Below, one piece after another: positions 440 to 19,240 of a stretch of DNA of 64,000 nt (position 1 is its first letter; each line of letters starts with the position of its first letter). The notes beneath the pieces are model-generated. The model saw only the letters and a program-made list of their open reading frames with translations, ran no database searches and was not told the origin of the DNA. The translations under genes were made by a program, and so were the position numbers. Source of the stretch: Acholeplasmataceae bacterium. GTDB lineage: Bacteria > Bacillota_I > Bacilli_A > Acholeplasmatales > Acholeplasmataceae. Location of the stretch: the NCBI GenBank assembly GCA_007692425.1, contig RECG01000014.1, forward strand, positions 9,654 through 73,653, written 5' to 3'.

Positions 440-441
440 AT

Positions 442-459: not shown

Positions 460-460
460 G

Positions 461-1377: not shown

Positions 1378-1549
1378 GCATGATGTGGTTTCATAGAAGC
1401 CGGACCTATCATGGATGACAACACAAGATGGCGCTTTTCCTTGAGGAAAAGCATGCGTTGTCATCAGCTGAATTAAAGTTGGACATCAGACAATTTCCGA
1501 CATGGAAATGTCTTTAAAGATAGTGTCAATTAAAAAAGGAGGAAAATAC

Positions 1550-4500
1550 ATGAAAAAACGTTTGTTTAGTGTGTTGTTTGTCTTGTTCTTTACCGTGTTC
1601 ATCGTCGCTTGCGAAGGCGAGATCGAACCGTGGCTGACAAGCATCACGATTGTTGGTGCTGATGACACCACTGTTCCATTTGACGAACCGTTCAATGTCT
1701 TGGAAGGTGTCACAGCCATCGGTAACAACAGCATTGACTATACCGACCAGATGACTTATGCCACGACCGCACCGATTGACGCGGAAGGCAATCTGGACAC
1801 GACTTCGACAGGTGTGCACGCCGTCCGTTATGAAGTGCGCGTCGGCACGATTGTCGTCCAACGCTGGCGTTACATTACAGTTGATCAGCCTGAACGTCCC
1901 GACGGCCTCGTCGTCAATGGCGACTTTGCCCTGGGTACGGTGTTCTGGGATGATCCGGCCAATGGTTTCTTTGTGGCGGATGGCGCATCCTTGTCACTGT
2001 CCATCGATGATGGCGCTTTGAAAGCTGACGCTGTTTCCGGTTCAAATGTCTGGACACCGCGCTTCGGCCAACAGGGCATCCCCTTTGAACAAGGCAAGGC
2101 TTATGAAGTGACCTTCAGGGCCAAGGCAAGTGTTGACAAGACCATCAACCTGCAAGTGGGTGAACTGATTGACTTTGCACCGTGGTTCATCGACTTCAAG
2201 CCCGGTCAGACCGAACATCGCACCATCACCACCGAATGGGCTACCTACACCTATACTTTCTTCATGGGTACTGACAATCCACGTGGCGGCATTTTGTTCG
2301 AGCTGGGTAACATCCCGCCTGAGGGCACGCTTGGTGGCGCACCATTCACCATTTGGTTTGATGACATCGACGTCATCGAAATCGATGATCTGGAAGACAC
2401 CATCGCACCTGTATTCAGCGGTGTGAGAGCCAACATCAACCTGGCGGTCGATGATGACTTCGATCCGCTTGAAGGCGTGACCGCGATGGACAATGTCGAC
2501 GGTGATGTCACCGATCTGATCGATGTGACGATTTATGAAGTGGTTGGCGAGACTGAAACCGAAATTGCCGAAATCGACATGTCGGTCGAAGGCACATACC
2601 GCATCGTTTACACCGTGAGTGATGCCGCCGGCAATGAAGCCATCGCTGAAAGCCATCTTACAGTCATCCTGGTCATCGTCTTTGAATATCCGGGCTGGCG
2701 CACCTTTGTCAACTTCTGGGAAGGCACCGAAAGCGAACTGATTGTTGAAGACGGCGTCTTGACCTTCACGCTGACCACCATCAGCGCCATGAATGAAAAC
2801 TGGAAGGCCCAGGTCATCCAGGATGCCTTCGCTTTAGGTTATGGCGAAGACAACGAGGGCCATATGGCACTGGAAGCCGGCGCCACGTATCGTGTCACCT
2901 TTGATGCCAAAGCGACGGTTGCAGGCGACATCGTGCTTGCAATCGGTTATTCCATCCCCGAATGGAACCCGTATTTTGTTGAAGAAGACATTGCGGTGAC
3001 CACCGAATGGCAGACCATTTCCATCGAATTTACATTGGATGCGGAAGGCGATTACTCGATCCCCGCCCAATTCAAACTCGAAATGGGATTGCTCTTTGAA
3101 GGACTCGACGCCCCGCAAAGCTTCATGCTCGACAATGTCATGATCGAGATCAAGGTGGGCGATGACTTTGTCCCGACCGACTTGATCTTCAATGGCACCA
3201 TGGATGAGGAAGTCATGAATATCTATGCCCTGCCCGAATGGCGTTCATTCGTCAATTTCTGGGAAGGTACCGTGGGCGAAATCAAAGGTGTCAATGGCGA
3301 ACTCGTGCTCAATGTGACCAACATCAGCGCCATGAACGAAAACTGGAAGATCCAGGTCATTCAGGACGCCTTTGCCTTGGGTACAGGCCCGGACAACGCG
3401 GGACACATGCAACTTGAAGCAGACAACACCTACCGCGTGACCTTCCGAGCCAGGGCCTCTGTCGCTGGACAAGTCACCTTGGCCATCGGCCATAGTGAAG
3501 GCGAATGGACACCGTACCACACGGCAACCCTCGATGTCACGACCGAGATGCAGGAGTTTGTCGTCACTTTCACCACCGATCATGCAGAAATAGACTATTC
3601 CGTCTTGGCGCAGTTCAAGCTTGAAATGGGATTGCTCTTCGCGGATGTATCATCAGGCTACTTTGTCCTTGACGATGTCGACATCAGAGTTCTTGATGGT
3701 GAAAACTATGTTTACACCGGTCTGATCAAGAATGGCACGATGGATGCACCGTTCCTTTATGCCCTCGAAGAATGGCGTGCTTTCGTCAACTTCTGGGAAG
3801 GCACCGTCGGCAACATCTATAACGTGGCTGGCGAACTTGTCTTGATGGTCGACAACATCAATGCCATGGATGCAAACTGGAAGATTCAGGTCATCCAGGA
3901 CGCCTTTGCCTTGGGTACCGGTCCGGACAACGCGGGACACATGCAACTTGAAGCAGACAACACCTACCGCGTGACTTTCCGTGCCAGAGCGTCTGTCGCC
4001 GGTGAAATCACCCTGGCCATCGGCCATGCCGGTGGCGGCTGGACGCCATATCACATGGCAACCCTTGATGTCACCACCGACATGCAAACATTTGAAGTCA
4101 TCTTCACCACTGATGATGACGAGATCGACTATACCGTATTGGCGCAGTTCAAACTTGAAATGGGATTGCTCTTCGCGGAAGAATCATCAGGCTACTTTGT
4201 CCTTGATGACGTCATCATCGAAGTGCTTGATGACGAAGACTATGTCGACGCTGAATTGATTGTCAACGGCCACATGAACCTGCCGGCACCTTATGAACTC
4301 AACGAATGGCGTGGCTTCGTCAACTTCTGGGAAGGTACAATCGGCAACATCCACGGCATCGCCGGTGAGTTGATTTTCATGATCGACAACATCAGCGCCA
4401 TGGATGCCAACTGGAAGATCCAAGTCATCCAAGATGCCTATGCACTTGGCACCGGCCCGGACAACGAAGGCCACATGCTCATTGAAGCGGGCAAGACCTA

Positions 4501-5266
4501 CCGCATCACCTTCACTGCCAGAGCGTCTGTTGCTGGTGAAATCACCCTGGCCATCGGCCATGCCGGTGGCGGCTGGACACCTTACCATATGGAAACCATT
4601 GAAGTCACGACCGAGAGACAGACCTTTGTCATCGAGTTTACAGCTGACAATGCAGATCCTGATTATTATTCAGTGCTTGCACAATTCAAGTTTGAAATGG
4701 GCATGCTGTTCGCCGAATCAACATCCGGTATCTTCGCGCTTGACAATGTCATGATCGAAGTGCTTGACGATGAGACCTTCATCGATGCCGAATTGATCGA
4801 AAACGGCACCATGGACAAAGCACCTAATATCGTGGACATTGCCCTTAGCATTGAAGATTTCAGCACCTTGGTTGCCGCACTGATTGAAGCTGAACTCGTT
4901 GCCGCCCTGCAAGGCGAAGGACCGTTCACCGTCTTCGCACCAACCAACGATGCGTTTGCTGCCCTGCTTTTAGAACTCGACATGACCGCTGCGGAACTTC
5001 TGGCACTTGAGACCCTTCCTGAAATTCTGCTCTACCATGTTGTGGCCGGACAGTTTACCGCCGCTGACGTAATCGCCCTGGCCGCTGACGGCCCGGTCGA
5101 AGTTGAAACATTAAATGGTGCAACGATTACAATCTCCGTGGTCGAAGGTAGTGTCTTTATCAATGATATCGAAGTCACCCTGCCTGACGTCATGGCCAGC
5201 AACGGCGTGATTCACGTCATCGACGGCGTGCTCCTGCCACCAGCAGAAGAAACACCAGAAGAATAA
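1550..5266 (+). CDS. Large surface lipoprotein: Ig-like modules, five CBM-like (galactose-binding-like) modules and a C-terminal fasciclin (FAS1) domain
   Basis: RBS AAAGGAGG lies before ATG 1550. Lipobox signal MKKRLFSVLFVLFFTVFIVAC. One NGDFALG..W start typical of CBM4/9-type modules, then four EWRxFVNFWEGT repeat units. FAS1 motifs FTVFAPTNDAF and NGVIHVIDGVLLP. Confidence 0.85.
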   Translation: MKKRLFSVLFVLFFTVFIVACEGEIEPWLTSITIVGADDTTVPFDEPFNVLEGVTAIGNNSIDYTDQMTYATTAPIDAEGNLDTTSTGVHAVRYEVRVGTIVVQRWRYITVDQPERPDGLVVNGDFALGTVFWDDPANGFFVADGASLSLSIDDGALKADAVSGSNVWTPRFGQQGIPFEQGKAYEVTFRAKASVDKTINLQVGELIDFAPWFIDFKPGQTEHRTITTEWATYTYTFFMGTDNPRGGILFELGNIPPEGTLGGAPFTIWFDDIDVIEIDDLEDTIAPVFSGVRANINLAVDDDFDPLEGVTAMDNVDGDVTDLIDVTIYEVVGETETEIAEIDMSVEGTYRIVYTVSDAAGNEAIAESHLTVILVIVFEYPGWRTFVNFWEGTESELIVEDGVLTFTLTTISAMNENWKAQVIQDAFALGYGEDNEGHMALEAGATYRVTFDAKATVAGDIVLAIGYSIPEWNPYFVEEDIAVTTEWQTISIEFTLDAEGDYSIPAQFKLEMGLLFEGLDAPQSFMLDNVMIEIKVGDDFVPTDLIFNGTMDEEVMNIYALPEWRSFVNFWEGTVGEIKGVNGELVLNVTNISAMNENWKIQVIQDAFALGTGPDNAGHMQLEADNTYRVTFRARASVAGQVTLAIGHSEGEWTPYHTATLDVTTEMQEFVVTFTTDHAEIDYSVLAQFKLEMGLLFADVSSGYFVLDDVDIRVLDGENYVYTGLIKNGTMDAPFLYALEEWRAFVNFWEGTVGNIYNVAGELVLMVDNINAMDANWKIQVIQDAFALGTGPDNAGHMQLEADNTYRVTFRARASVAGEITLAIGHAGGGWTPYHMATLDVTTDMQTFEVIFTTDDDEIDYTVLAQFKLEMGLLFAEESSGYFVLDDVIIEVLDDEDYVDAELIVNGHMNLPAPYELNEWRGFVNFWEGTIGNIHGIAGELIFMIDNISAMDANWKIQVIQDAYALGTGPDNEGHMLIEAGKTYRITFTARASVAGEITLAIGHAGGGWTPYHMETIEVTTERQTFVIEFTADNADPDYYSVLAQFKFEMGMLFAESTSGIFALDNVMIEVLDDETFIDAELIENGTMDKAPNIVDIALSIEDFSTLVAALIEAELVAALQGEGPFTVFAPTNDAFAALLLELDMTAAELLALETLPEILLYHVVAGQFTAADVIALAADGPVEVETLNGATITISVVEGSVFINDIEVTLPDVMASNGVIHVIDGVLLPPAEETPEE
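2684..4815 (+). repeat. Four tandem in-frame repeat units inside the surface lipoprotein gene (543, 534 and 534 bp spacing)
   Basis: The conserved Trp codon of the WRxFVNFWEGT motif falls at 2696, 3239, 3773 and 4307. An identical 53-bp run occurs at 3389-3441 and 3923-3975. Near-identity starts at 3983 and at 4517. Confidence 0.9.
4820..5245 (+). other. Segment encoding the FAS1/fasciclin domain of the surface lipoprotein
   Basis: IVDIA..DFSTLVAAL..GPFTVFAPTNDAF..LLYHVV..NGVIHVIDGVLLPP matches the conserved H1/H2/YH blocks of fasciclin domains. Confidence 0.7.
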
Positions 5267-5342
5267 TATTATAAATGTGATGGCGCATGGGCATGCTTGT
5301 CCATGCGCCAATCCACACCAAGTTATCAAATAGGAGGAGAAT

Positions 5343-6776
5343 ATGAAAAAATTACTGTTATTCACCACGGTCATTCTCTTTGTCTTCGCCCTGCACGCCT
5401 GTAATGGCCAAAACGGCGGTAATGGCGGACAGCAAGGCATCGAACTGACCTATGCTGACTGGGGCAACCAAGAGTTCAACCAGTTATTGATTGACGCGTT
5501 CATGGAAGAATATCCTGACATCCGCGTGACCTTGCGAGGCGACATTGATGGCGCCGGTGATATCTTCACAGGCAACCTTGTCACTGCCGCACAAGCCGGC
5601 TTGCTCCCTGATGTCTATGCGATCGACAATGTCCCCACGGCCATCAATGCCGGCTTGACATTGGATGTCGCCCCATACTGGGATGCAGACCCGGAAACAG
5701 CCTTGATCTATGAGAACATCGCCAACACGGCGGTCTATCAAGGCCAACGTCTGGCCATGCCGTCTTACCAGTTCTTCAAAGGTATTTATATCAACCTTGA
5801 CATCTTTGACGATGCCAACCTGACCACGACCGATGATTACCGCGTCGATTTGGACGGTTATCCGGTCAAGGACTGGACCTTTGATGAATTCATCGCCATC
5901 ATCAAGGCCGTCACCAACTATACACCTGAGAATCCGGAAACCTTGGTCATTGGCATGGCGAACTGGTTCGGCGCACCTGATTTCCAACAAGTCTGGCCAA
6001 CCATGTTTGATGCCGACGTCCTCTATGACACCTATGACGGCACCGCATTCCACTACACTTCACCGGAATGGATTGATGCCATGACCGAAAAAGTCGACTT
6101 GCACCGTGCCCAGAATGGTTGGACCACCAACCTTTCCTTGGACGATCTGGAAGAGTACGAAGTCTTGAGCCAATTCTTGACGACCGCCGGCTATGTCGCC
6201 CTTGACATCGACGGTTCCTGGATGTTCTGGATGATCAACGAAGCTGTTGAAAATGGTTTCAATCTCGGTTTCTGGCCCTATCCTCAAGGACCGGCCGGCT
6301 TTTTCCCGCCGACCATCCTTGACTACATCTGTGTCTCCAGCCAGACCGACCATCCTGAAGAAGCCTATCTTCTGGCCAAATGGATGACCTGGGGCAGACA
6401 AGGCTGGGAAGCCAGACTAGACATCTACGAGGCTGACAAGGCCGCTGCCTTGGCAGCAGGCGAAGTCCCGACCTGGCTCGACCGTTTTCCGGTTGCCGAC
6501 TATCCGGATGTCTGGGACCGCGTCTTTGACCTGGTCGATGGCATCGAAGGCATTGAATACACGATCGATCACATCGCAAACGCGAAACCAGACCTTGACA
6601 AGTGGCTCCCGGGCTACAAGGATTTCTGGGCATGGGTTTTCGATGGTGAGAATCCCTACAACTGGATGAATCTGGTTGAGGCCGGACCGGCTGCTGTCGG
6701 CACTTACGCCGTGCAGTGGAACAACAGGATCAATGACATTGTCACCCAGGAGAAAGACCGCTTAGGCAACGAATAA
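5343..6776 (+). CDS. ABC transporter (CUT1-type) extracellular sugar-binding lipoprotein
   Basis: RBS AGGAGG. Lipobox FVFALHAC followed by a Gly/Asn/Gln-rich linker. Family-1 SBP length (477 aa). Lies upstream of the permease genes. Confidence 0.85.
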   Translation: MKKLLLFTTVILFVFALHACNGQNGGNGGQQGIELTYADWGNQEFNQLLIDAFMEEYPDIRVTLRGDIDGAGDIFTGNLVTAAQAGLLPDVYAIDNVPTAINAGLTLDVAPYWDADPETALIYENIANTAVYQGQRLAMPSYQFFKGIYINLDIFDDANLTTTDDYRVDLDGYPVKDWTFDEFIAIIKAVTNYTPENPETLVIGMANWFGAPDFQQVWPTMFDADVLYDTYDGTAFHYTSPEWIDAMTEKVDLHRAQNGWTTNLSLDDLEEYEVLSQFLTTAGYVALDIDGSWMFWMINEAVENGFNLGFWPYPQGPAGFFPPTILDYICVSSQTDHPEEAYLLAKWMTWGRQGWEARLDIYEADKAAALAAGEVPTWLDRFPVADYPDVWDRVFDLVDGIEGIEYTIDHIANAKPDLDKWLPGYKDFWAWVFDGENPYNWMNLVEAGPAAVGTYAVQWNNRINDIVTQEKDRLGNE

Positions 6777-6854
6777 GTCAACGTTTACATTTCATGATAT
6801 AATCGGGAGAGAAGGTTCACCTTCTCTCCCGCATCATCATGTCCGGAGGTTCGC

Positions 6855-9800
6855 ATGAAAGCCAAGAGCCACGAATGGGTCGCTTATTTAAAACAACTCA
6901 ATCCCAAAATCATCATCATCACCATCTTGTCGGTGGTCATGGTTTTATTATTGAGTTTGTCGTTTTTACGCAAGTCAAGTGACGATCGTTTTTTCGATGC
7001 GATGCCTTTGGCACACGATTATGAAGACGTACGGCTGACCGCCGTTTACAATGTGCCCCTCTACACCGCCATCTTTGCTGGGTACCGTGAACTTGGACTC
7101 GAACCGGCCGGTGAAGATCATGAGATCAGCACGGCTGACATGACCGGTCAACGCATCGACCGTGATCATCCTGATTTCGGCCATCATGTCGCTGATTATC
7201 TTGATGCACAAGGTTTGCCGATCATGGATGTCTTGCTGGTGGACCGCGACCAGACCGTCTCATTCGTCCATCCCGGCACCACCAACGGCCTTTATTACCT
7301 TGAAATCGATTATCTGGAACTCGACCAGAGCATCGACAACACGCAAATCGCCATCACGATCAACGGTGAAAGTCCGTTTTATGAAAGCCAGACAATCGTC
7401 TTGCCTTCACGCTGGCTCCTGGCCAGCGACACCTTTACTTTGGACCGCTACCAAAACGAAATCCAACCCAATTCGCTCAAGGTCCAAGATTGGTTTTCCC
7501 ATGCGATTCATGACTATAGGGGTATGCATCCCGGTCTGTTCGCGTTTCATTTGAACGAGGGTGACACCATCACCATTTCCCATGTCAACGGTCGTCTCTT
7601 GATCGGTAACATCCGTTATGTCGAGCCACGCACGCTACCGACCTATGCCGAATACCTGGCCGACAAAGGCAGCCATCCCGTCGCATCTGACAAACTCGTG
7701 GTGGCCGCCCGTGACATGCTTTTCCGCAACGATCCTTCGATCCGTCTGCGTCCGGAAATGGATCCCTCGAACCTTTATTATGATACGCAGTTTCTCAGAC
7801 TCAATGTCATCTTCGGAGATTCCTGGCAAAATGCCGGCCAAGCCGTCACCTATGCGGTGGAAGTCACAGAACCAGGTTACTATCAATTGTCCTTCAAATA
7901 TCGTCAGTACATCATGAGGGACATGACGGTCTTCCGCAAGATCAAGGTCAACGGTGAAGTACCGTATGACCTTTTGGAACATGTTGCATTCCCGTATACG
8001 ACCTCATTCATGCACCGCACGTTGAAAGATGCCGATGGCCAGCCGCTTTATGTCTATCTGGAAGCCGGCACTCATGAAATCACGCTCGAGGCGGTCAGCT
8101 ATCCTTACCGGCAGGCCATCGAAACCATCCAATATGTCATGCGTCAGATCCAAAACATGGCGCTCGATGTCAAACGCTATACCAGCGGGGGCACCGATCT
8201 TTACCGCGACTGGGACATTGAAGCCTATTTTCCACAGGCCGCCGGCCAAATCAGGGACTGGGCCGATTTGCTTGATGATTTGCACCAAGCCTTATTGGCG
8301 TTGTCCACGAACAACAACCCTTCCGAGATCAGCCAGTTGAAAGTCGCGTCCGCACGGCTGAGAAACATCGCCTCTGACATCAACCGCCTGCCCAGCCGCA
8401 TGGTCCAGTTTTCCGATGGTGACTCCTCGGTCAACCAGATTCTGGGCAATCTCATGCAAAACCTGTTACGCCCCAATCTCGAACTTGAACGTCTCATCGT
8501 CCATGGCGATGTCAACATCGGCCGCCCCCACGCCAATGTCTTTATCAATTTCTGGGAAGGCCTTAAACGTCTTGTCTTGTCGTTTGTCAACAATCCCTAC
8601 AGCGCATCGGCGCGACGACAGGACAACGAACTGATGGTCTGGGTCAACTACCCCCGTCAATACATCGAAATCATGCAGACCATGATCGACCAGTATTACG
8701 ACGGCACGATGAATGTGACCCTCTCACAAATGCCTGACCAGAACAAGCTCATCCTCGCCAATGCCAGTGGCAGGGCACCGGATGTGGCGATCGGTGTCAA
8801 TCACTGGATTCCTTATGAATTCGCCATCCGGGATGCCTCTTTGGACTTGCGTCAGTTTCCCGGTTATGCCGACCTTGTGAGCAACTTCACACCAGGGGCG
8901 ATCATCCCCTATGTCTTTGAAGAAGGCGTCTATGGCCTGCCCAGCACCCAAAACTTCTGGGTGACTTTTTACCGCCGCGACATTTTAGACAGCATCGGCA
9001 TCCATGACATTCCGCAAACCTGGGACGAAATCATCGAAATCCTGCCGATCCTACAAAGTTACGGCATGAATTATTTCGTCCCGTTGGCCCAGTTTTCCGG
9101 ACTGAAACCATTTGTCGCCACCCTGCCGTTCATTTATCAGTTCGGGGGTGACCTTTATACCGAAGACGGCATGCAGACCGCCATCAACAGCGAACAGACA
9201 CTCAAAGGCATCCGCCTCATGTCCGAACTCTACACGCTTTACAACCTACCTAAATTCGTCGGTAGTTTCTTCAACCATTTCCGCTATGGCATGTTGCCAA
9301 TCGGCATCGGTGACTTATCAACCTATATCCTGCTTCAAACCGCGGCTGTCGAGCTTGACGGTCTTTGGGGCATGGACCTGCATCCCGGTGTCTATCATGA
9401 AGACCTGGATACCATCGTCCGCTATTCCGCCGTCGGTGCCCAAGGCGACATGATTTTGAGTTCGACGCTCCATCCGGACGAGTCATGGCGCTTTCTGTCA
9501 TGGTGGATGTCCACACCAATCCAGTCGGAGTTCGCCTTCCTGCTGCAAAGCACCTACGGCAAGGCTTATTTCTGGAACAGCGCCAACATCGAAGCCTTCA
9601 AGACCGTCTCGATGCCTGACGAATACAAGCAAATCGTCCTGGCTCAGTGGGAGTGGGGCATCGAAGCCTCCCGTATCCCGGGCAACTATATGGTCGAACG
9701 CGAGATCAGCAACGCCTGGACCCGGATTGTCTTTGAAGGTGCCAACCCGAGACAAGCCCTCGATGAGGCGGTGCGCATCTCCAACCGCGAGATCATCTAC

Positions 9801-9908
9801 AAGATGGCCGAGTTCGGTTATGCTTTCCAGGGACAACCCTTGAAACCTTATCCGGTGCCGAGCATCTACAACATCCATGAATGGCTGACGGAGGTGTCCG
9901 ATGATTAG
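6855..9908 (+). CDS. Membrane-anchored 1017-aa fusion: about 550 aa of unknown extracellular region plus a C-terminal family-1 solute-binding-protein-like fold
   Basis: RBS GGAGG. One N-terminal TM helix ([19 protein letters not shown]) and no lipobox. The C-terminal part from about nt 8625 looks like a sugar SBP. Its stop overlaps the start of the next permease gene. Confidence 0.7.
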
Positions 9909-10785
9909 ACACATGAACCGTCCGGCCTGGTTCATCGTTCCTTATTGGTCGTTGTTCGCTCTATTTGTCATCATTCCCGTATTGGCCGCGATTGCCTTGT
10001 CTTTCACGTATTTCAACGCCATTCAGGCACCACGTTTCATCGGGATCACCAATTACATCGAACTGATCACGATGGACACGGTGTTCATGCAGTTCGTCTT
10101 GTCCAATACCTTGCGTTTCGCCCTGATCGTCGGACCTGTCGGTTATTTCCTGGCTTTCATGCTGGCTTGGACCCTGGCCCAGATCTCGGCCAAACCACGC
10201 ATGGTGCTGGCCATCATCCTTTACTCACCGTCGCTGACGCTCGGTGTCGCGATGGCCGCCATGTGGCGCATCATCTTCTCAGATGACTCGCAAGGCTATC
10301 TCAACAGCCTGCTCATCAACTGGGGTGTCATCTTGGAACCGATCGCCTTCCTGCAATCACCGCAATACCTGATGAGCATCATGATCATTGTTTCCTTGTG
10401 GAGCAGCATGGGCGTCGGCTTCCTGGCGATGCTCGCCGGTGTCCTCAATATTGACCAGACCCTTTATGAGGCCGCCTATATGGATGGTATCCGCAACCGC
10501 GCCCAGGAGATATTCTATATCACCATCCCTTCCATGAAACCGCAGATGCTGTTCGGTGCGGTCATGGCGGTGGTGACCACCTTCCAGGCCGGCGGTATCG
10601 GCGTGATGCTCTCAGGCACCAATCCGACCCCGCAATATGCCGGCCAGCTGATCGTCAACCACATCGAAGATTTCGGTTTCATCCGTTACATGATGGGGTA
10701 TGCCGCAGCGGTCAGCGTCGTCCTGCTTTTGATGGTGTACTTCATTTCGAAGGTCACCTGGGGCATTCTTGGAGAAAAGGAGTGA
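9901..10785 (+). CDS. Sugar ABC transporter permease (MalF/LplB-like)
   Basis: Six predicted TM segments. EAA loop [36 protein letters not shown] 5 nt before the ATG. Confidence 0.9.
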
Positions 10786-10786
10786 G

Positions 10787-11671
10787 ATGATGGCCAAATC
10801 CTCGTTCCAAGGTACCAAAATCAATCCGATCCGCTTTCATCGCAGCCAGTTGAAGTTCTATGCCTTCCTGGTGCCTTTTTCGACGTTGATGATCCTGCCG
10901 ATCATCTTCATCATCAACCATGCTTTCAAACCACAAAGCGAACTATTCGCCTTTCCGCCCCGTTTTTTCGTGCGCCAACCGACCTTTGACAACTTTCTTG
11001 AACTGTCACGTATCGCCTCGGCGTCGGGCGTGCCTTTCTCACGTTACATCATCAACAGTTTGTTCGTGACGGGCGCAGGTGTCTTCCTGGCGATTTTCAT
11101 CACCGCTTTTTCCGCTTATGCCTTGTCCAAACTGAAGTTCAAAGGCAAGCGTTTCCTCTTCGAGGTCAACACGCTCGCCCTCATGTTCGTGCCGATCGCG
11201 GTCCAGATTCCGCGTTACCTGATCATCGCCCAGACGGGCATGATCGATTCCTACGTGGCGCACATCCTGCCCATGGTCGTCATGCCAGTCGCGATGTTTT
11301 TGATCAAACAGTTCATCGACCAGACACCCGATGAACTGATTGAATCGGCCAAGATTGACGGCGCTTCGGAAATGGAGATTTTCCTCAAGATCATCTTCCC
11401 GATCGTGCTGCCGGCAATCGCGACGGTCGGCATTCTCGCCTTTCAAGTGTTATGGAATGACGTCACGACGTCCATTCTTTATATTGATGACGAAAGCAAA
11501 CGGACTTTGGCCTTCTACATGATGAGCCTGACGTCCATTCAAGGTAACATCGTGGCCGGCCAGGGGATGGCAGCGGCCGCCGGTCTGATCATGTTCCTGC
11601 CGAACCTGATCCTCTTCATCATCCTGCAAAGCAAGGTCATGAACACCATGGCCCACTCGGGGATCAAATGA
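10787..11671 (+). CDS. Sugar ABC transporter permease (MalG/LplC-like)
   Basis: EAA loop ESAKIDGASEMEIFLKIIFPIVLP. Start moved to ATG 10787, after RBS AAAGGAG. The listed TTG start at 10769 overlaps the previous gene. Confidence 0.9.
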   Translation: MMAKSSFQGTKINPIRFHRSQLKFYAFLVPFSTLMILPIIFIINHAFKPQSELFAFPPRFFVRQPTFDNFLELSRIASASGVPFSRYIINSLFVTGAGVFLAIFITAFSAYALSKLKFKGKRFLFEVNTLALMFVPIAVQIPRYLIIAQTGMIDSYVAHILPMVVMPVAMFLIKQFIDQTPDELIESAKIDGASEMEIFLKIIFPIVLPAIATVGILAFQVLWNDVTTSILYIDDESKRTLAFYMMSLTSIQGNIVAGQGMAAAAGLIMFLPNLILFIILQSKVMNTMAHSGIK

Positions 11672-13713
11672 TGAAGAAGAAGTTGCTGATCCTCCTTTTA
11701 GGTCTCCTGATGCTTGTGGCGTTCGTCCCATCCCCGGACCCACAAGCAAACGGGTTACCCTACAACACGTTCACCTACAGCAGCGCCGCCCGCCGTTTTG
11801 TCTTCACGCAGGATGCCTACCTGCCGCTTTCCATCAGTTATGAGCTGGCAGGCTTGCGTCTCAACAACCCGCAAGACCTGACGATCGATGCGGAAGACAA
11901 CATCTATATCGCTGATTACGGCAACAGCCGCGTCATCAAGTACAGCCTTCAAGATGACGAGGTCTTCATCATCGGCGAAGGCGTCTTGAACCAGCCCAGC
12001 GGTGTCCACGTCGGACGGGACGGCCATCTTTATGTCGCCGATTTCGGCAACAAGGCCGGTTATCAGTTCCTCTATGACCGAGACACCAGGACCTACAGTC
12101 TCGGTGCCACTTATGAAAGACCGGTCGGCACGCCGTTCTTCCAACCAGGTGACGCCTTCGATCCGACCAAGATCGTCACCGACATGGGCAATAATGTCTA
12201 CCTGCTGCTCGCCGGCAACATCAACGGCATGGCCGAGTATGAGAACAACGGCAGCTTTTTCGGCTTTTTCGGCGGCAACCGCCTGCCGAACACCTGGGAC
12301 AACGTCCTGCGTTTCATCCTCTTCGATGAAACACAGCGACGCAACTGGTTCCAGATGATTCCCAAACCGGTCTATAACGTCGCCGTCGACCGCGACGGCC
12401 TGATCCTGACGACGACCAAGGGTGACATGGGCTATGTCAAGCTCAACATCGCCAATTTCGTCTACAGCAGTTCCGTCTGGGGACACACCAATGTCGAAGA
12501 CATCTTCGTCGGCCCCTACAACACCATCTTCACCGTTTCCGAAAACGGGTTCATCACCGAATATGGTCCGGACGGATCGGTCCTCTTTGTCTTCTCCGGA
12601 CCCGATCGCTTCAACCAGAAGGGCCTGTTCAAGGCGCCGACCGGCATTGCCGTCGACTCAAAAAACAACCTTTATGTCGTCGACCGCACGACCAACGCCC
12701 TGCAGGTTTTCATTCCGACCGAATTTGCCAACCTGGTCCATTACGCCATCAGCCTGTATCAGGACGGCCGATATATAGAGTCGCTTGAACCCTGGCAGGA
12801 AGTGCTCAAGATGAACAGTTTGTTCGATCTGGCCAACAAAGGCATCGCTGATGCCTATTTCGCACAAATGGAATATGATCTGGCGATGGCCTATTATGAA
12901 GTGGCCAGGGACACCGACGGTTACTCCAACGCCTTCTGGGAAGTCAGGAACACCTTCCTGCTAGGTAGCGGGGCCTTCCTCGTCATCCTTATGATCAGCA
13001 TGGTCGTGCTCTTTGCCGTCAACCGTCTGACCCATTTCATGGTCCATGTTAAAAAACCGGTGGCCCGCTTGAAAACTTGGCTCGGTCAATACAAACTTTA
13101 TCAGGAACTGGTTTTCCCCTTTTACATCTTCAGACAACCGGCCGATGGCTACTACGGCATCAAACGTGAGCAGAAGGGCTCCAATCTGTCGGCGACAATC
13201 TACCTGCTCTTGTTTTTCAGCATGTACATCCTGTTCATTTACCGGACGAGTTTCCTCTTCAACCCATACATTCCAAGTGAAATCAACATGTTCCAGCAGA
13301 TCATCACCGTCTTTTTGCCTTTCTTCCTCTTCGTCATCGCCAATTACCTGGTGTGCAGCATCCGTGACGGCGAAGGTAGGCTCAGGGATGTTTATCAGGC
13401 TTCGGCCTACACCTTGCTGCCGTTGATCATCACCTTGCCGTTGGTGACATTGGTCTCGAACGGCCTGACCTATAATGAAGCCTTCATCTACCATACCATC
13501 CTCTTTGTCGGCATCTTCGTCACCGTGCTTTATTTTGTCATCATGATCAAGGAAATTCATTTCTACGACATGAAGCCGACCCTCTACAACCTCTTCATCA
13601 CCTTGTTCACCGCCCTCATGATCCTGGCGGTCGTCTTCATCGTCTACTTGTTGTTAAATGAGGTTGTCACCCTCTTTTCAGACATCATCAGGGAGGTGGT
13701 CAGTCGTGGTTAA
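11668..13713 (+). CDS. Secreted six-bladed NHL-repeat beta-propeller and TPR-like segment fused to a C-terminal multi-TM Yip1-like domain
   Basis: Signal peptide MMKKKLLILLLGLLMLVAF. Six NHL-like blades (for example DNIYIADYGNSRVIKY, GHLYVADFGN, NNLYVVDRTTNALQVF). A helical pair YFAQMEYDLAMAYYEVA. About 6 TM helices follow. ATGA overlap with the upstream permease gene. Confidence 0.7.
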   Translation: MMKKKLLILLLGLLMLVAFVPSPDPQANGLPYNTFTYSSAARRFVFTQDAYLPLSISYELAGLRLNNPQDLTIDAEDNIYIADYGNSRVIKYSLQDDEVFIIGEGVLNQPSGVHVGRDGHLYVADFGNKAGYQFLYDRDTRTYSLGATYERPVGTPFFQPGDAFDPTKIVTDMGNNVYLLLAGNINGMAEYENNGSFFGFFGGNRLPNTWDNVLRFILFDETQRRNWFQMIPKPVYNVAVDRDGLILTTTKGDMGYVKLNIANFVYSSSVWGHTNVEDIFVGPYNTIFTVSENGFITEYGPDGSVLFVFSGPDRFNQKGLFKAPTGIAVDSKNNLYVVDRTTNALQVFIPTEFANLVHYAISLYQDGRYIESLEPWQEVLKMNSLFDLANKGIADAYFAQMEYDLAMAYYEVARDTDGYSNAFWEVRNTFLLGSGAFLVILMISMVVLFAVNRLTHFMVHVKKPVARLKTWLGQYKLYQELVFPFYIFRQPADGYYGIKREQKGSNLSATIYLLLFFSMYILFIYRTSFLFNPYIPSEINMFQQIITVFLPFFLFVIANYLVCSIRDGEGRLRDVYQASAYTLLPLIITLPLVTLVSNGLTYNEAFIYHTILFVGIFVTVLYFVIMIKEIHFYDMKPTLYNLFITLFTALMILAVVFIVYLLLNEVVTLFSDIIREVVSRG

Positions 13714-16096
13714 ACTCATGCGTTACATGGTCGTTTTCGCCCTCTTTTTCATGCTGATCAGTGTCATCACCTATGGTCGCGGTCACCACCATGCCGGCGA
13801 CATCGACGACATCATCCAAAACTATCCTTACATCAACCAGATGCTTCTGGAAAGTTCACGTTATACCCAGACCGATGACGTCGATCCGGCCCGGATGGAC
13901 GCCTATCTGGACACTTATCGTCTTAAATGGGACGATGACCAGCTCGAAACGATGGGCTTTCTTCCCATGATCGAAAACGACACACTCAAAGTCTGGTTTG
14001 AAAAGGATTCATTCTCGCTGATTGTCCATAACAAGACGACAGACTATTTCTGGTCTTCAAGACCGGAGTTCCAAGGAATCAGCGGCACCCAGGAAGCCAA
14101 CCAAGCCACCCGCCGGTTGATGAATTCCGGTCTTTGGGTCGAATATGTCAGGGCCGCCAATGTCTCTTCGAGCACAATCACGACGGCATCGCTTTATACG
14201 ATCGCCGATGTCCAGTTCCAAAACGACGGATCGATCACCATCGAACATGATGATCCGATCCGGCCCTACCAGATCCAAGACGGATCTTACAACACCAACC
14301 GGGCCGAGACAACCATCACCGGACAAACGGGGACGGGCTTCAGCGTCGATGTCAACCTCAAGCAGATCAATGTCCGCTTCACGGTCACCATCGCCCTCGT
14401 TGACAACCAGATCGAGGTCTTCATCCCACAGGAAAGCATCCTTGAGACCGGCGACATCTTCCGCCTGATCGGCATCCAGGTCTTCCCCTATTTCGGGGCG
14501 GCCCGCGAAGACAAAATCCCGGGCTATATCGTCATCCCTGACGGTCTTGGCGCCCTGGTCCGCATGCATCACCCCTGGAATACGAGTTTCCAAGCCCGCT
14601 TTTACGGTCCGGATGCCGGCTATGCCACGACCACCCTGCCCAGGTTATCGGTACCAATCTACGGCATGGTCCACCAAGCCGGCGCTGATGCCTTTTACGT
14701 CCATGTCGCCGAAGGCGCCGAGACAAGCCAGCTGCGTGCCACCTTCTGGGGTACGAGCACCCGCTATCACCGCATCACCGCCCGTTACAGCGTGCGCCAG
14801 ATCTACCGGAGCGTCATCAACCGGGCCGGTGAAGGCCGCGAGGCTGTCAGACCGGATCTGACAGCCAGCGATTATCGTCTGATTTTCAATATCCTTGACG
14901 GTGACCAGGCCCATTATGTCGGCATGGCCACCGATTACCGTGACCGTCTGATCGAACAAGGCATCCTGACCAGTCGTGAGAAAAACAGCCAGGACGGCAT
15001 CCCCCTGCATCTGAGTTACATCATGAGCGACCGCGAACCCTCCTTCATCGGTACCGCCAAGGTTGTCATGACGACCACCGACGATGTCATGCACAGTTAC
15101 CAATCCTTCCGCGAGGCAGGCATCCTCAACCAGCAGGTCAACCTATACGGCTGGAGCAACGACGGGTTTTTCAATCGCGCACCCTACCGCTTCCGCATCA
15201 GCGGCAAAAGCGGCTTTGACGACATGACCGATCTGATCACGGCCGACGGCAACACCCTTTATCTGCATAATGATTATGTCGTCTCGAGTGAACTGTCATC
15301 ACGGGTGTCTTATAACCGGGATGTCGCCCGCAATCTCTCGCGTCTCAAGATGACCATGACCAGGCGGTTGTTGAACGACCGCACGGTCGAACTCTACTTT
15401 GTCACCCCTGAAAGCAGCGACCGTCTGGCCGCTGCCGACCTGCGGCACCTCGAGGGTCTCGGTGTCTCAGGACTGATGATGACGGATTTGGGCAATACCT
15501 TGTTCAGCCATTTTGACGGCGGCTTGTATGAACGCAGTGACGCCATTGGTTATTATCAAGACATCGCCGCCCGCTATGACCATCTTTTGCTGGACATGCC
15601 CAACGATTACCTGTTCGCCTATATCGACGGCTATACCGCCTTGCCGATCACGAACAGCCAATACGATTACTACACCGACCTGATTCCGCTTTTGCCCATC
15701 ATCCTGAAGGGCAGCGTCTCCTATTACACGCCTTATCTCAATTTCAACGCCCTGGCCGAAGACCGCTTGCTGACAATGGTCGATTTCGCCGTCAACCCGA
15801 GCTATGTGCTGACCGAACAACCGACCTATGAAATGCGGTTCACGATGGCCAACCGTTTCTACACGACGACAAGAAGCGATTATGAAGCGGAGATCATTGA
15901 GGTCTATCATTATCTCAACGACGCCCTCAGCCATGTCATGGACGCCTACATTGTCCATCGTCAGGTCATCGAGACCGGCCTGGTCGCCGTGACCTATTCA
16001 AACGATGTCGTCATCTACGTCAATTACAGTTATCAGTCGAAGACGGCGGACGGTCATCTGATCGCGGCCCGCGACTACAAGGTGGTGACGCCATGA
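13706..16096 (+). CDS. N-terminally anchored extracellular protein of about 800 aa, DUF5696-like (uncharacterised; glycosidase-like size)
   Basis: The long ORF has one N-terminal TM helix (YMVVFALFFMLISVITY). A GTG at 13706 lies 6 nt after GGAGGTGG; the alternative ATG is at 13718. Blocks such as GYIVIPDGLGALVRM and YGWSNDGFF recall the DUF5696 family from memory only. Confidence 0.55.
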   Translation: MVKLMRYMVVFALFFMLISVITYGRGHHHAGDIDDIIQNYPYINQMLLESSRYTQTDDVDPARMDAYLDTYRLKWDDDQLETMGFLPMIENDTLKVWFEKDSFSLIVHNKTTDYFWSSRPEFQGISGTQEANQATRRLMNSGLWVEYVRAANVSSSTITTASLYTIADVQFQNDGSITIEHDDPIRPYQIQDGSYNTNRAETTITGQTGTGFSVDVNLKQINVRFTVTIALVDNQIEVFIPQESILETGDIFRLIGIQVFPYFGAAREDKIPGYIVIPDGLGALVRMHHPWNTSFQARFYGPDAGYATTTLPRLSVPIYGMVHQAGADAFYVHVAEGAETSQLRATFWGTSTRYHRITARYSVRQIYRSVINRAGEGREAVRPDLTASDYRLIFNILDGDQAHYVGMATDYRDRLIEQGILTSREKNSQDGIPLHLSYIMSDREPSFIGTAKVVMTTTDDVMHSYQSFREAGILNQQVNLYGWSNDGFFNRAPYRFRISGKSGFDDMTDLITADGNTLYLHNDYVVSSELSSRVSYNRDVARNLSRLKMTMTRRLLNDRTVELYFVTPESSDRLAAADLRHLEGLGVSGLMMTDLGNTLFSHFDGGLYERSDAIGYYQDIAARYDHLLLDMPNDYLFAYIDGYTALPITNSQYDYYTDLIPLLPIILKGSVSYYTPYLNFNALAEDRLLTMVDFAVNPSYVLTEQPTYEMRFTMANRFYTTTRSDYEAEIIEVYHYLNDALSHVMDAYIVHRQVIETGLVAVTYSNDVVIYVNYSYQSKTADGHLIAARDYKVVTP

Positions 16097-17169
16097 AGAA
16101 CGTGCTGAACCATGTCAAAGGCTTTTTCGCCGGCATCAAGAACGGATTTGTCCGTGCCTGGCGTGCCGCCGCTGATTATCATTACCACAAGATTTCCCCT
16201 TCTTACGATAAAATCAAACATGCCTTGAAGAACAATGTCATCGTCCGTATCGAGGGACAGCAATTGACCTTGTTCAGCTTCTTAAACATCACCATCACCC
16301 GGCGTCGGCGTGAAGGCTTTTATGGCTATGTCTTCATCTTGCTTTGGCTGCTTGGTTTCCTGGTCTTCACCCTTTATCCGATGTTTTATTCGCTTTACCT
16401 GAGTTTCAATCATGCCTATTATTCGGCTCAGACGGGCGTCGTTTCGACCTTCATCGGTTTTGAAAACTATTTGTCCATCTTCAGAAGCCAGGTGCTTTTA
16501 CCTTTATTCGCCACCTATCTGGGCAAGATGGTCCTGTCGGTGCCGCTCATCATCGTCTTCTCGATTTTGATTGCTGTCCTGATCAACAACCCCATCAAAC
16601 TCAAAGGCTTCTGGCGGACTGTCTTTTTCCTGCCGGTCGTCATCGCCACCGGTCCGGTCATCGGCGAACTGGCCAACCAGGATGCCACCTCACTACCTGC
16701 CCTGCAAGATTCGGAAGTCTTGCTCTTCATCACCGAAAATCTTGGTGATTGGCTGGCCAATCCGTTGGAAATCATCTTGACATCAATGCTCTTGATCCTC
16801 TGGTATGCCGGCATTCCGATTTTGATTTTTTTGGCCGGTCTGCAAAAAATCGATACCGCCATTTATGAGGCGGCCTCGATCGATGGTGCATCGCCCTGGG
16901 ACCGTTTTTGGAAAATCACGCTGCCGTCGATCAAGCCGCTCATCAGCGTCGCCATCATTTATGTCGTCGTCACCATGTCGCTCTTTGTCGAACCGGGCGG
17001 CATCCTTGACCTGGCCAGGATCCACATGCTGGTCGGCGCACCGGATTCAGCCTTTTTCCACGGCTACGGCTACGCTGCCGCGATTGCTTGGATCTATTTC
17101 ATCCTGATGGTGATCCTGATGGTCATCTTTGTCGGTATGATGTCGATCAGAAGGAGGGAAGAGGCATGA
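16093..17169 (+). CDS. Sugar ABC transporter permease (MalF-like) with an N-terminal extension of about 70 aa
   Basis: EAA loop YEAASIDGASPWDRFWKITLPSIKP. ATGA overlap with the upstream gene. Confidence 0.9.
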   Translation: MKNVLNHVKGFFAGIKNGFVRAWRAAADYHYHKISPSYDKIKHALKNNVIVRIEGQQLTLFSFLNITITRRRREGFYGYVFILLWLLGFLVFTLYPMFYSLYLSFNHAYYSAQTGVVSTFIGFENYLSIFRSQVLLPLFATYLGKMVLSVPLIIVFSILIAVLINNPIKLKGFWRTVFFLPVVIATGPVIGELANQDATSLPALQDSEVLLFITENLGDWLANPLEIILTSMLLILWYAGIPILIFLAGLQKIDTAIYEAASIDGASPWDRFWKITLPSIKPLISVAIIYVVVTMSLFVEPGGILDLARIHMLVGAPDSAFFHGYGYAAAIAWIYFILMVILMVIFVGMMSIRRREEA

Positions 17170-18095
17170 AACAAGACAAAACCGTGTTGAAACAAAAAAT
17201 CCGCCGAATCTTCCTTGGCATGAATGTCGTCGACGGCTTGATCTACAAAGTGATCATTTATACGCTGTTGATCAGTTTCAGCTACATCTATCTCTATCCG
17301 ATCTTGTTCATGGTCGTCAACAGCCTGATGACGGTCGATGATCTGATCAATCCCGGCATCAAATGGGTACCCACAGCGCTTGAGTTTTCGAACTACCAAC
17401 GGGCCACCCAGGTGCTGAAGTTCCCGGATTCGGTTTTCGAGACCACGTCTTACGTGCTCAAGGTCAGCATCGCCGCGACCTTGTCTTCAGCCATCATCGG
17501 TTTCGGCTTCGCCCGCTTCAACTTCCCGCTTAAGAACATCCTCTTCGCCTTGATGCTCGCGACCTTCATCCTGCCTTCGCAGGTGACGATGGTCGCCAAC
17601 ATGCTCATCTTCAGCAACCTCGGACTGATGAGCACGCAACGGGCCATGATCTTGCCGGCCATTTTCGGCCAAGGGGTCAACGCCGCCATCTTCATTCTGA
17701 TTTTTTACCAGTTTTTCAAAACCATTCCCCAAGTCTTGATGGAATCGGCCGAAATCGACGGCGCCTCACCTTTCAAGGTCTTCACCCGCATCGCTGTACC
17801 GTTGGCCGTGCCGTCGTTCATCATCGTCTTTTTGTTCAGTTTTGTCTGGTATTGGAACGAGACCTTCATCACCGGCCTCTATGTTGGTGGTCGAATCACG
17901 ATGCCTTTGAAACTAGGGGCTTTCAGAGACAGTTATATCACACTGTTTCCACCGGGTTCACCGGGTTCGGAACTCAATGAAGCCATCTTGCTTGCTGGCA
18001 ACATGATCACGATCCTGCCGTTGTTGTTGTTATACTTCGTGGCCCAGCGCTACTTTGTCGAAAGCATCGACCGGACCGGCATCACCGGCGAATAG
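17166..18095 (+). CDS. Sugar ABC transporter permease (MalG-like)
   Basis: EAA loop ESAEIDGASPFKVFTRIAVPLAVP. Start at ATG 17166 (ATGA overlap, RBS GAAGGAGGG). The listed start at 17088 lies inside the previous gene. Confidence 0.9.
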   Translation: MKQDKTVLKQKIRRIFLGMNVVDGLIYKVIIYTLLISFSYIYLYPILFMVVNSLMTVDDLINPGIKWVPTALEFSNYQRATQVLKFPDSVFETTSYVLKVSIAATLSSAIIGFGFARFNFPLKNILFALMLATFILPSQVTMVANMLIFSNLGLMSTQRAMILPAIFGQGVNAAIFILIFYQFFKTIPQVLMESAEIDGASPFKVFTRIAVPLAVPSFIIVFLFSFVWYWNETFITGLYVGGRITMPLKLGAFRDSYITLFPPGSPGSELNEAILLAGNMITILPLLLLYFVAQRYFVESIDRTGITGE

Positions 18096-18109
18096 AAAAG
18101 GAGCACACC

Positions 18110-19240
18110 ATGAAAAAATTACTTTTAATGTTCATCATCTTGTCCTTGCCGGTGCTGGCATCATGCCAACAGGGCGTTCCCAACGGTTTGTTGCCGTTGT
18201 CACCGGTCGAAGATTGCGCGGTCGGCACGCTGGAAGGCGGCTGGGTCTGCATCTGGGCTGATGAGTTTGACGGCGACGAGATCGACAGTGAAAAATGGAA
18301 CTTCCAGACCGGTGGCGGTGGCTGGGGCAACAATGAGCTGCAATATTACCGTCCTGAGAATGCCACTGTCTCAGATGGACGCTTGATCATCACCGCTAAA
18401 AAAGAAAGTCATATGGGCAGACAATACACCTCGGCCCGGATGACCACCAAATACCGTGGTGACTGGCAATACATGCGCATCCAGGTCAGTGCCAAGATGC
18501 CAGGCGGACGTGGCACCTGGCCGGCCATCTGGATGATGCCGACCATGAATGTCTATGGTGGATGGCCCAACAGCGGTGAGATTGACATCTTAGAATATGT
18601 CGGTTACGACCCTGACAAGATTCACACCGCCATCCACACCCAGAAGTTCAATCACAAGATCGGCACGCATCTCTTCTATACGAAGACATTGGCCGATGTC
18701 GAGACGACCTTTCATGTCTATGAGATGATCTGGTCGCCGGGCCGGTTGGAAATGCGCGTCAATGATGAACTGTTTGGCGTGTTCGCCTATACCCCCGTGT
18801 TCAACCAGGAAGTCCCTTATCACGCCGCGTTCCCCTTTGATCAACTCTTTTATCTGATATTGAATGTGGCCATCGGTGGCGACTGGGGCGGAAGAGAAGG
18901 CGTCGATGACAACATGTTTCCGACATCCATGGAAGTCGAATATGTCCGTGTCTACCAACTTGATTACGCGACTTTGGACAAGGAAACCCCGTCGACACCC
19001 GCCAACATCCAACTCGCCCAACTGCCCAACACCTTGTTCTGGACACCATCAACCGATGATGTCGGCGTTGAAAAATATGCTATATATGTGGACGGTGATT
19101 TCCGTCAATATGCCAGTTTGAACCAGGCACGCTTGATCGGTTTGAATGTCGGTCAGACCTATTCAATCCAGATCCAGGCGGTTGATTTTGTCGGTCGCCG
19201 CTCGGGCAAGAGCGACAGTTTCCTGCTCACCATTGTCTGA
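18110..19240 (+). CDS. Secreted lipoprotein GH16 endo-beta-1,3-glucanase with a C-terminal FN3-like domain
   Basis: Lipobox LPVLASC. GH16 motifs WPAIWMM and GEIDILEY. The C-terminal ~90 aa (PSTPANIQL..YAIYVDG..YSIQIQAVD) resemble FN3. Confidence 0.85.
   Translation: MKKLLLMFIILSLPVLASCQQGVPNGLLPLSPVEDCAVGTLEGGWVCIWADEFDGDEIDSEKWNFQTGGGGWGNNELQYYRPENATVSDGRLIITAKKESHMGRQYTSARMTTKYRGDWQYMRIQVSAKMPGGRGTWPAIWMMPTMNVYGGWPNSGEIDILEYVGYDPDKIHTAIHTQKFNHKIGTHLFYTKTLADVETTFHVYEMIWSPGRLEMRVNDELFGVFAYTPVFNQEVPYHAAFPFDQLFYLILNVAIGGDWGGREGVDDNMFPTSMEVEYVRVYQLDYATLDKETPSTPANIQLAQLPNTLFWTPSTDDVGVEKYAIYVDGDFRQYASLNQARLIGLNVGQTYSIQIQAVDFVGRRSGKSDSFLLTIV

Follow-up and report, generated by a model that had tools for sequence, protein, structure and literature searches.

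NHL-Yip1, a propeller-bearing membrane protein conserved in a sugar-uptake module with two ABC permease pairs in Bacillota

Introduction

In Bacteroidota, surface glycan-binding proteins (SGBPs) and SusCD utilisomes supply glycan loci with non-catalytic accessories at the cell surface, which are thought to couple the capture and hydrolysis of glycans to a dedicated importer. Compared with these Sus-like systems, the coupling of surface polysaccharide breakdown to import by ATP-binding cassette (ABC) transporters in monoderm and wall-less bacteria is poorly understood. Here, we analyzed a stretch of 64,000 nucleotides from an Acholeplasmataceae bacterium (contig RECG01000014.1, positions 9,654 to 73,653; the whole stretch is referred to as the window, and its first letter is position 1). 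The focus is on the gene at 11668-13713 (+ strand), whose product, here called NHL-Yip1, joins an NHL β-propeller through a TPR-like stalk to a Yip1-type membrane domain. The gene is part of a conserved and previously unnoticed uptake module with two permease pairs and two solute-binding proteins (SBPs), and the carriers of this module number hundreds of species, among them environmental Acholeplasmatales and Izemoplasmatales as well as Paenibacillus and Lachnospiraceae. Our preferred reading, to which we assign a probability of roughly 45%, makes NHL-Yip1 a subunit of a twin CUT1-type ABC importer complex, with a non-catalytic role as an extracellular scaffold or adaptor. The likeness to the SGBPs and SusCD utilisomes is a functional analogy only, with no homology: those are outer-membrane, TonB-dependent systems of diderms, whereas the locus described here encodes cytoplasmic-membrane ABC importers of monoderm or wall-less Bacillota.

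The founders of the Yip1 family (PF04893) are the eukaryotic Golgi proteins Yip1 and Yif1, which function in Rab-dependent vesicle traffic and whose N-terminal region is cytosolic. NHL-Yip1 has the Pfam Yip1 domain with its multiple transmembrane (TM) helices in common with them, but its N-terminal 400 aa are predicted to be extracellular, it carries an extra TM helix and it has no such partners. The only functionally studied bacterial Yip1 protein in the literature searched is YknW of Bacillus subtilis, a small protein described with four TM domains, which is the fourth subunit of the YknXYZ ABC transporter and affects its assembly (PMC4338810). YknW resembles NHL-Yip1 in being a polytopic bacterial Yip1 protein encoded within an ABC transporter operon. 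It differs in having no large ectodomain, compared with the 400-aa propeller-TPR ectodomain of NHL-Yip1, and in its partners, which are a MacB-type exporter (YknYZ) and a membrane fusion protein (YknX) rather than importer permeases with EAA motifs and SBPs. No gene for a membrane fusion protein or a MacB-like protein was found beside NHL-Yip1 in the window cassette. The locus gives the first genomic context, and no function yet, for a bacterial Yip1-domain protein beyond YknW.

A different likeness is found in PknD, a Ser/Thr kinase of Mycobacterium tuberculosis (PDB 1rwi/1rwl), where a six-bladed NHL propeller is likewise held outside the membrane on a TM tether. PknD spans the membrane with a single TM helix and bears a cytoplasmic kinase, while NHL-Yip1 has six TM helices, a TPR stalk, no output domain and cytoplasmic loops of at most 50 aa. 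Closer in taxonomy are the GH94/GH161 β-1,3-glucan clusters of Acholeplasma laidlawii, which are described in passages of Kuhaudomlarp et al. (2019, PMC6484121) as containing ABC permeases without a gene for a nucleotide-binding domain, a GH16 laminarinase and a GH3 enzyme. Those passages mention neither NHL-Yip1 nor the DUF5696 protein encoded next to it, and the window cassette (1502-19240) has no GH94, GH161 or GH3 gene. The β-glucan regulon of Paenibacillus sp. JDR-2 was considered as an instance of the same module and rejected, as it consists of ordinary three-gene ABC cassettes (PMC4765114). No literature was found on DUF5696 (PF18952, IPR043751) and no description of the seven-gene module, and searches for a bacterial NHL plus Yip1 protein returned only unrelated human proteomics. 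An earlier note on this DNA, made from the sequence alone, was aware of no described function for the NHL plus Yip1 combination in a carbohydrate operon, and the literature search likewise found none.

Results and discussion

The NHL-Yip1 family and its conserved neighborhood

Searching with the full-length protein gave 1,227 clusters, of which the best 120 are nearly all about 630-710 aa long with the same domains; the source names among these 120 are 'YIP1 family protein', 'TPR repeat protein', 'YvrE' and 'YncE' only. The C-terminal 337 aa were used in an exhaustive HMMER search, in which 339 representatives (clusters at 50% identity) passed E ≤ 1e-30 and 1,227 passed E ≤ 1e-10. The best 150 of them are mostly 660-850 aa long and are matched in their C-terminal half, and the longer forms of the family are either NHL-like too or without another domain match. 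Sixty-five diverse representatives (24-51% identity) served for all domain, charge and conservation counts; Yip1 was matched in every one of them, NHL in 62/65 and TPR models in about 40 (TPR_2 in 39/65).

The juxtamembrane motif GYSxAFWExRN, taken from a 13-sequence alignment, was used as a pattern to scan one genome per species; at least 594 of these genomes contain a relative, among them members of Acholeplasmataceae, Mariniplasma, Peloplasma, Haploplasma modicum, Izemoplasmatales, Paenibacillus and Bacillus. Protein and contig searches revealed a further branch in Clostridia, with Lachnospiraceae and Acetatifactor among its members; outside the best 80 genome loci, the taxonomic range is taken from protein source names.

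Open reading frames (ORFs) were called in each related locus and scored against the ten proteins of the window cassette, with counts restricted to loci with enough flank. The next gene downstream of NHL-Yip1 encodes DUF5696 in 80/80 loci, and the next gene upstream encodes a permease in 72/73. Between Acholeplasmatales and the Paenibacillus and Bacillus members at 37% identity, order and orientation do not change. Relatives at only about 30% identity retain a core that consists of a giant SBP, the permeases permA and permB, NHL-Yip1, DUF5696 and the permeases permC and permD. Joined by a smaller SBP, this core is spread over Bacilli (including the wall-less Acholeplasmatales and Izemoplasmatales) and Clostridia. 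The genes for NHL-Yip1 and DUF5696 overlap or abut in relatives, with an overlap or spacing of 8-32 nt, and wherever the upstream flank of a listed cassette is available, it contains a giant SBP of 990-1100 aa.

The flanking enzymes vary with the substrate. They comprise GH16 in the window, melibiase (GH36)/GH31 or NAGPA in other loci, and GH43, GH51 arabinofuranosidase and arabinose isomerase (AraA) in Lachnospiraceae-type contigs, and the orthologous cassette of Haploplasma modicum ends in GH16-GH3. Two NAGPA-associated loci have an extra gene of ~920 aa before permC. The locus is a glycan-utilization locus of the ABC-importer type with two uncharacterized invariant accessory components, NHL-Yip1 and DUF5696. 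The earlier note had placed the gene in a sugar-transport operon, and it does lie between two ABC importer permease pairs with two SBP genes upstream. The same note had allowed that the fusion might be peculiar to the source genome, with randomly varying neighbors; the search results speak otherwise, as the family is large with a fixed architecture and its neighbors are not random.

Architecture and topology of NHL-Yip1

NHL-Yip1 has 681 aa, and its ATG overlaps the stop codon of permB (ATGA). The protein begins with a signal peptide or N-terminal h-region, identified in the hydropathy scan, which has no lipobox cysteine (11668-11745, aa 1-26). A predicted extracellular six-bladed NHL β-propeller follows (11755-12717, aa about 30-350), based on Pfam, a PDB profile, an AlphaFold2 (AF2) model and Foldseek. 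The NHL match reaches 72.4 bits against a Pfam cut-off of 20 (E 1.7e-20) with three individually significant repeats; the canonical YIAD/YVAD/YVVD motif can be read in three blades, the other three being degenerate. Between propeller and membrane lies a TPR-like four-helix stalk (12721-12906, aa 352-413), supported by Pfam, profile and AF2 model, and the juxtamembrane motif GYSxAFWExRN and TM1 come next (12913-13032, aa 416-455) as one continuous helix in the model. A basic cytoplasmic loop with the motif HPxDxFYxIK and 9 K/R (13033-13182, aa 456-505) leads into the Yip1 domain. The Pfam Yip1 match (13123-13632, aa 486-655) scores 34.2 bits, above the gathering cut-off of 28.6, and covers 171/173 profile positions; the C-terminal fragment by itself gives 35.7 bits. 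It contains the cytoplasmic loop NYLVxxIxDGEG and the outer loop LTxNE. The five Yip1 TM helices extend over aa about 506-665; by hydropathy and AF2, five hydrophobic segments lie within aa 505-675, with the one extra TM helix before them. Beyond NHL, TPR and Yip1, no further Pfam or NCBIfam domain was found in the protein, and the NCBIfam scan gave no equivalog, with weak NHL cross-matches to ScyF/ScyE only.

The AF2 model has a mean pLDDT of 81.9, with the propeller mostly at 80-95. Along the chain it shows an N-terminal helix, six four-stranded blades (~34-350), four TPR-like helices (352-413), a long helix running into TM1 (416-455), three short helices in the basic loop and five more membrane helices. 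Foldseek was queried with the whole model, and the propeller dominated the matches: E-values for TRIM71, Pizza designs (Pizza6) and PknD ranged from 1e-14 to 1e-10, and the TM-scores per target were 0.74-0.81. The single-sequence TPR match is weak (TPR_16 at aa 360-417, 20.2 bits, below the Pfam cut-off of 32.7), whereas a full-length profile of 34 relatives, compared with the PDB, matched consensus TPR proteins over aa 360-420 at E 1.6e-24 to 1e-14. The same profile matched the extracellular sensor propeller of PknD and the Pizza designs derived from PknD at E 2e-25 to 2e-62; only NHL and TPR chains were matched in this search, and none for the membrane domain.

In the model, a two-helix insert (aa 210-228) lies between blades 3 and 4, after a loop rich in glycine and aromatic residues, FFGFFGGN (aa 196-204); the two together take up 12253-12351 (aa 196-228). 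The loop is specific to the family and highly conserved, and the insert is modelled at low confidence (pLDDT 56-64). Together they are a candidate interaction or ligand site.

The hydropathy scan shows the N-terminal h-region (aa 1-26) and six TM segments, with TM1 at about 431-453. The 399-aa ectodomain of the window protein is acidic (28 K/R vs 48 D/E), and the loop after TM1 has 9 K/R in 45 aa; among the 65 relatives, the mean net charge is -20 for the ectodomain and +7 for the loop. A signal-like h-region is present in all 65. In many of them the propeller, which starts with a conserved PYxTYT, is immediately preceded by a signal peptidase site of AxA type, and the leader of the window protein (…VPSPDPQA/NG) is likely cleaved. 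Given the acidic ectodomain, the basic loop after TM1 and the h-region, the propeller and TPR stalk are predicted by the positive-inside rule to lie outside the cell. The architecture proposed in the earlier note for 11668-13713 is well borne out by Pfam, AF2, Foldseek and hydropathy, with matches much stronger than chance would give: the six NHL blades reappear as six four-stranded blades (canonical in motif in three, degenerate in three), the TPR-like helical pair as two TPRs with four helices to which the family profile also matches consensus TPR proteins, and the roughly six TM helices of Yip1-like layout as TM1 followed by the five-TM Yip1 domain. Its outside-facing propeller agrees with charge bias and hydropathy in the window protein and the 65 relatives, and a cytoplasmic placement is not indicated.

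PknD is the best natural solved sequence relative (profile E 2e-25 to 1rwi; Foldseek E 6.6e-11), and its extracellular NHL domain is a sensor. NHL-Yip1 could by this kinship be an extracellular sensor or gate as well, which binds a ligand on the propeller, as has been proposed for the PknD sensor domain, and passes a signal through the membrane domain to the permeases. The conserved motifs in the cytoplasmic loops would suit such a role. However, NHL-Yip1 offers only a 45-aa loop and no output domain on the cytoplasmic side, and the cassette has standard regulators beside it in Paenibacillus castaneae and Lachnospiraceae contigs, which makes a sensor very unlikely in our view.

Conservation and the function of the propeller

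At propeller positions conserved in at least 80% of the 65 relatives, no His, Glu, Cys, Ser or Arg was found; the residues there are mostly Gly, Pro, Asp and aromatic sites of the repeat motif. This pattern argues against a shared catalytic site, and hence against an enzymatic propeller, be it a lactonase, a lyase or another six-bladed catalyst, that acts on the glycan or on an oxidized sugar product. Weak Pfam SGL matches in 33/65 relatives, the name 'sugar lactone lactonase YvrE' given to some of them at source and the presence of virginiamycin B lyase among the Foldseek matches could be taken in favor of catalysis. Yet NHL and SGL are related six-bladed propeller families, so that SGL cross-matches are to be expected, the source names are automatic annotations, and in the window protein SGL (PF08450, SMP-30/gluconolactonase) stays at 13.6 bits, below the cut-off of 26.3. 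Of the functions considered here, catalysis by the propeller is the one we find hardest to credit.

The membrane part carries invariant motifs on both faces, namely GYSxAFWExRN at the outer end of TM1, HPxDxFYxIK and NYLVxxIxDGEG in cytoplasmic loops and LTxNE in an outer loop. Motifs of this kind exceed what a plain anchor would call for. This bears on the alternative that the propeller is a lectin-like binder of surface glycans, analogous to SGBPs of the SusE/F type, which presents polymer or oligosaccharide to the SBPs while Yip1 merely anchors it. The predicted outward orientation of the propeller and the strongly conserved FFGFFGGN loop are in keeping with glycan binding; so are the divergence of family groups in step with the flanking carbohydrate-active enzymes and the fact that every surface protein of the wall-less Acholeplasmatales needs a membrane anchor. 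On the other hand, a single helix or a lipid anchor suffices for the other cassette proteins, and a six-TM domain with DGEG and LTxNE motifs implies more than that. Moreover, the cassette already encodes a dedicated CBM4_9 surface protein, and many propeller positions are constant over cassettes with different substrates. A propeller that acts solely as a glycan binder is, in our view, rather unlikely.

Permeases, DUF5696 and the giant SBP

The scaffold reading depends on the partners that the module offers. All four permeases of the window have an EAA-like coupling motif and, together with the two SBPs, they show the TM-domain pairs and extracellular SBPs that define CUT1-type importers. No ATPase gene was found at 1502-19240 or in any related cassette examined, and among the scanned window ORFs, ATPase genes were limited to those of a glycine-betaine transporter (21685-22518) and an ABC-F protein (25682-27226). 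The permeases are therefore expected to depend on an ATPase from another locus; sugar importers of Bacillota usually share one of the MsmX/MsmK type whose gene lies apart. Passages of PMC6484121 make a similar point for the Acholeplasma clusters.

The DUF5696 protein matches its Pfam model at E 9.5e-134 and had no match in the PDB, either as a single sequence or as a profile. Its structural model (pLDDT 76.5) resembles GH129, GH101, GH31 and GH36 enzymes, with 5opq (E 5e-27) as the best fold match and TM-scores of 0.68-0.72 per target for NagBb. Given these fold matches, DUF5696 is, on its model, a glycoside-hydrolase-like ectoprotein and a candidate for a new glycoside hydrolase family. Over 14 diverse cassettes, the only acidic positions that stay D/E are D275 and D438 (792-aa numbering). 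Identity with the GH161 enzyme of the A. laidlawii cluster was considered and rejected, since DUF5696 models as a (β/α)8 fold of the GH129/GH31 type, while GH161 belongs to clan GH-Q with GH94 and GH149 according to passages of PMC6484121.

In the giant SBP, the SBP_bac_1 fold occupies only aa about 610-900 of 1017. The N-terminal ~600 aa after the signal-anchor helix matched no Pfam family and no PDB sequence. A relationship of the N-terminal 620 aa to DUF5696 was rejected (hhalign probability 0.2), and a Pfam GH129 match in this region at E 0.036 was treated as chance.

A model for NHL-Yip1 in the importer module

Several observations lead us to favor a scaffold or adaptor: an outward propeller on a TPR stalk, a conserved six-TM domain, obligate co-inheritance, irrespective of substrate, with two permease pairs, a giant SBP and a GH-like ectoprotein, conserved propeller residues that argue against catalysis, and the precedent of YknW. 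The layout of the cassette is also friendly to a complex, with all of its proteins membrane-embedded, lipid-anchored or signal-anchored, and we infer that the NHL-Yip1 platform binds something and physically contacts the permeases. In the model that we propose, the Yip1 bundle would dock beside the permease pairs in the membrane, and the TPR stalk and propeller would hold the anchored DUF5696 ectodomain, the giant SBP or an oligosaccharide above the translocation pores. Products of surface hydrolysis, here β-glucan cut by the GH16 lipoprotein, could then pass directly to the SBPs without diffusing away, and the module would be energized by the ATPase encoded elsewhere. If true, the scaffold idea would mean a new kind of ABC importer supercomplex, and the module provides a concrete gene set for deletion, purification and imaging.

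Four points weigh against this reading. Conserved gene order proves a shared function and not a complex. The ectodomain has a mean column conservation of 0.45, at least as high as that of the TM part, which fits glycan binding and protein binding equally well. The Yip1 membrane domain has no solved homologue or known mechanism; a profile of 19 diverse C-terminal domains gave only a chance match to a G protein-coupled receptor (E 0.12) in the PDB. Finally, the analogy to YknW is loose, as the partner of YknW is a MacB-type exporter and not a type I importer.

YknW also suggests another role for NHL-Yip1, that of an assembly or stability chaperone which sets the oligomeric state or membrane insertion of the permease pairs and anchored ectoproteins without being a stoichiometric subunit. 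Apart from this precedent (PMC4338810), TPR motifs are typical of protein-protein interaction and chaperone modules, and the gene overlaps or abuts its neighbors. The gene overlaps and the strict inheritance of one copy per cassette fit a stoichiometric subunit at least equally well, however, and a propeller of 340 aa seems oversized for a chaperone, so that a purely assembly-related role appears quite unlikely.

The scaffold reading can be extended, more doubtfully, to the module as a whole. The seven-gene block might be a hitherto unrecognized, substrate-swappable glycan-uptake chassis of Bacillota, a monoderm counterpart of the Bacteroidota utilisome, in which NHL-Yip1 would be the hub that joins two ABC importers, the new GH129-like DUF5696 ectoenzyme family and the giant tethered SBP in one surface machine. 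As part of this same doubtful proposal, the window version would operate on the bare membrane of a wall-less Acholeplasmataceae bacterium, and arabinan-type versions would be found in Lachnospiraceae.

The cassette in the window

Ten genes on the + strand make up the window cassette, in the order CBM4_9/fasciclin protein, 477-aa SBP, 1017-aa giant SBP, permA, permB, NHL-Yip1 (sixth), DUF5696, permC, permD and GH16. Neighboring genes overlap at six of the nine junctions, among them the two on either side of NHL-Yip1 (4 nt with permB), and no convincing terminator was found inside the run. The first operon gene (1502-5266) encodes a surface lipoprotein with three CBM4_9 domains, an Ig-like and a fasciclin domain, which likely serves in glucan capture. 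It is followed by the lipoprotein SBP of 477 aa (5343-6776), which has no Pfam match in the window protein and SBP_bac_1 in orthologues, and by the giant membrane-anchored SBP (6855-9908) with its SBP_bac_1 domain at aa 630-887. The permease genes permA (9901-10785) and permB (10769-11671) precede NHL-Yip1, and both products keep the EAA motif. The DUF5696 protein, with an N-terminal membrane anchor, is encoded at 13658-16096, with a likely start at ATG 13718, five bases past the NHL-Yip1 stop. The EAA motif is again kept in permC (16093-17169) and permD (17088-18095). The run ends with a GH16 endo-β-glucanase with a lipoprotein signal (18110-19240), the substrate-specific accessory enzyme of the window version, and we infer that this is a β-1,3/1,4-glucan version of the module.

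Lipoprotein signals mark the CBM protein, the small SBP and GH16, and N-terminal signal anchors mark the giant SBP and DUF5696; all cassette proteins are therefore fixed to the membrane, which matters in a wall-less organism.

Upstream of the cassette, a promoter-like site on the + strand (TTTACA-17 nt-TATAAT, 1328-1356) matches the consensus at 11 of 12 positions, a match to consensus only. It lies within a region of ~1 kb without annotated function (425-1500), where the only ORFs are two overlapping ones on opposite strands, the + strand one without a Pfam match. Positions 2-424 encode the C-terminus of a conserved protein of ~1015 aa without a Pfam match; in relatives, the gene for this protein directly abuts the CBM gene.

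Variants and minor observations

In two contigs, separate genes about 190 nt apart within the usual cassette encode NHL (286 aa) and TPR-Yip1 (344 aa), a natural split of the fusion (L087 6829-8916 and L088 3273-5360). The split form was seen in two independent samples, with the halves adjacent and their order unchanged. In three other loci, L032 (Haploplasma modicum ATCC 29102), L049 and L072, the NHL-Yip1 frame is broken into two ORFs, which could be sequencing error or recent pseudogenization; the frame is intact in another H. modicum assembly (L001).

Two contigs of one metagenome-assembled genome (ERP125879_co1_83; L035 and L043) each carry a full GH16-type cassette, and some genomes therefore hold paralogous copies of the module. 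In Paenibacillus castaneae (L074), genes for a histidine kinase, an AraC-type response regulator and a LacI-type regulator precede the cassette (31-3468 of that locus), and GH16 and GH2 follow it (15922-18938).

The best protein match of NHL-Yip1 is 93% identical and known from metagenome assemblies only. The window has a G+C content of about 51%, compared with 29-41% in the cassette loci of the five Acholeplasmataceae-type relatives checked, and the source organism looks like an unusually GC-rich member of its clade. Three contigs of metagenome-assembled genomes labelled 'Staphylococcus epidermidis' or 'uncultured Staphylococcus' (L031, L036 and L037) contain the complete cassette. Their NHL-Yip1 proteins are 56-58% identical to the window protein, the contigs are very near to others labelled 'Bacilli bacterium', and the Staphylococcus labels are probably wrong.

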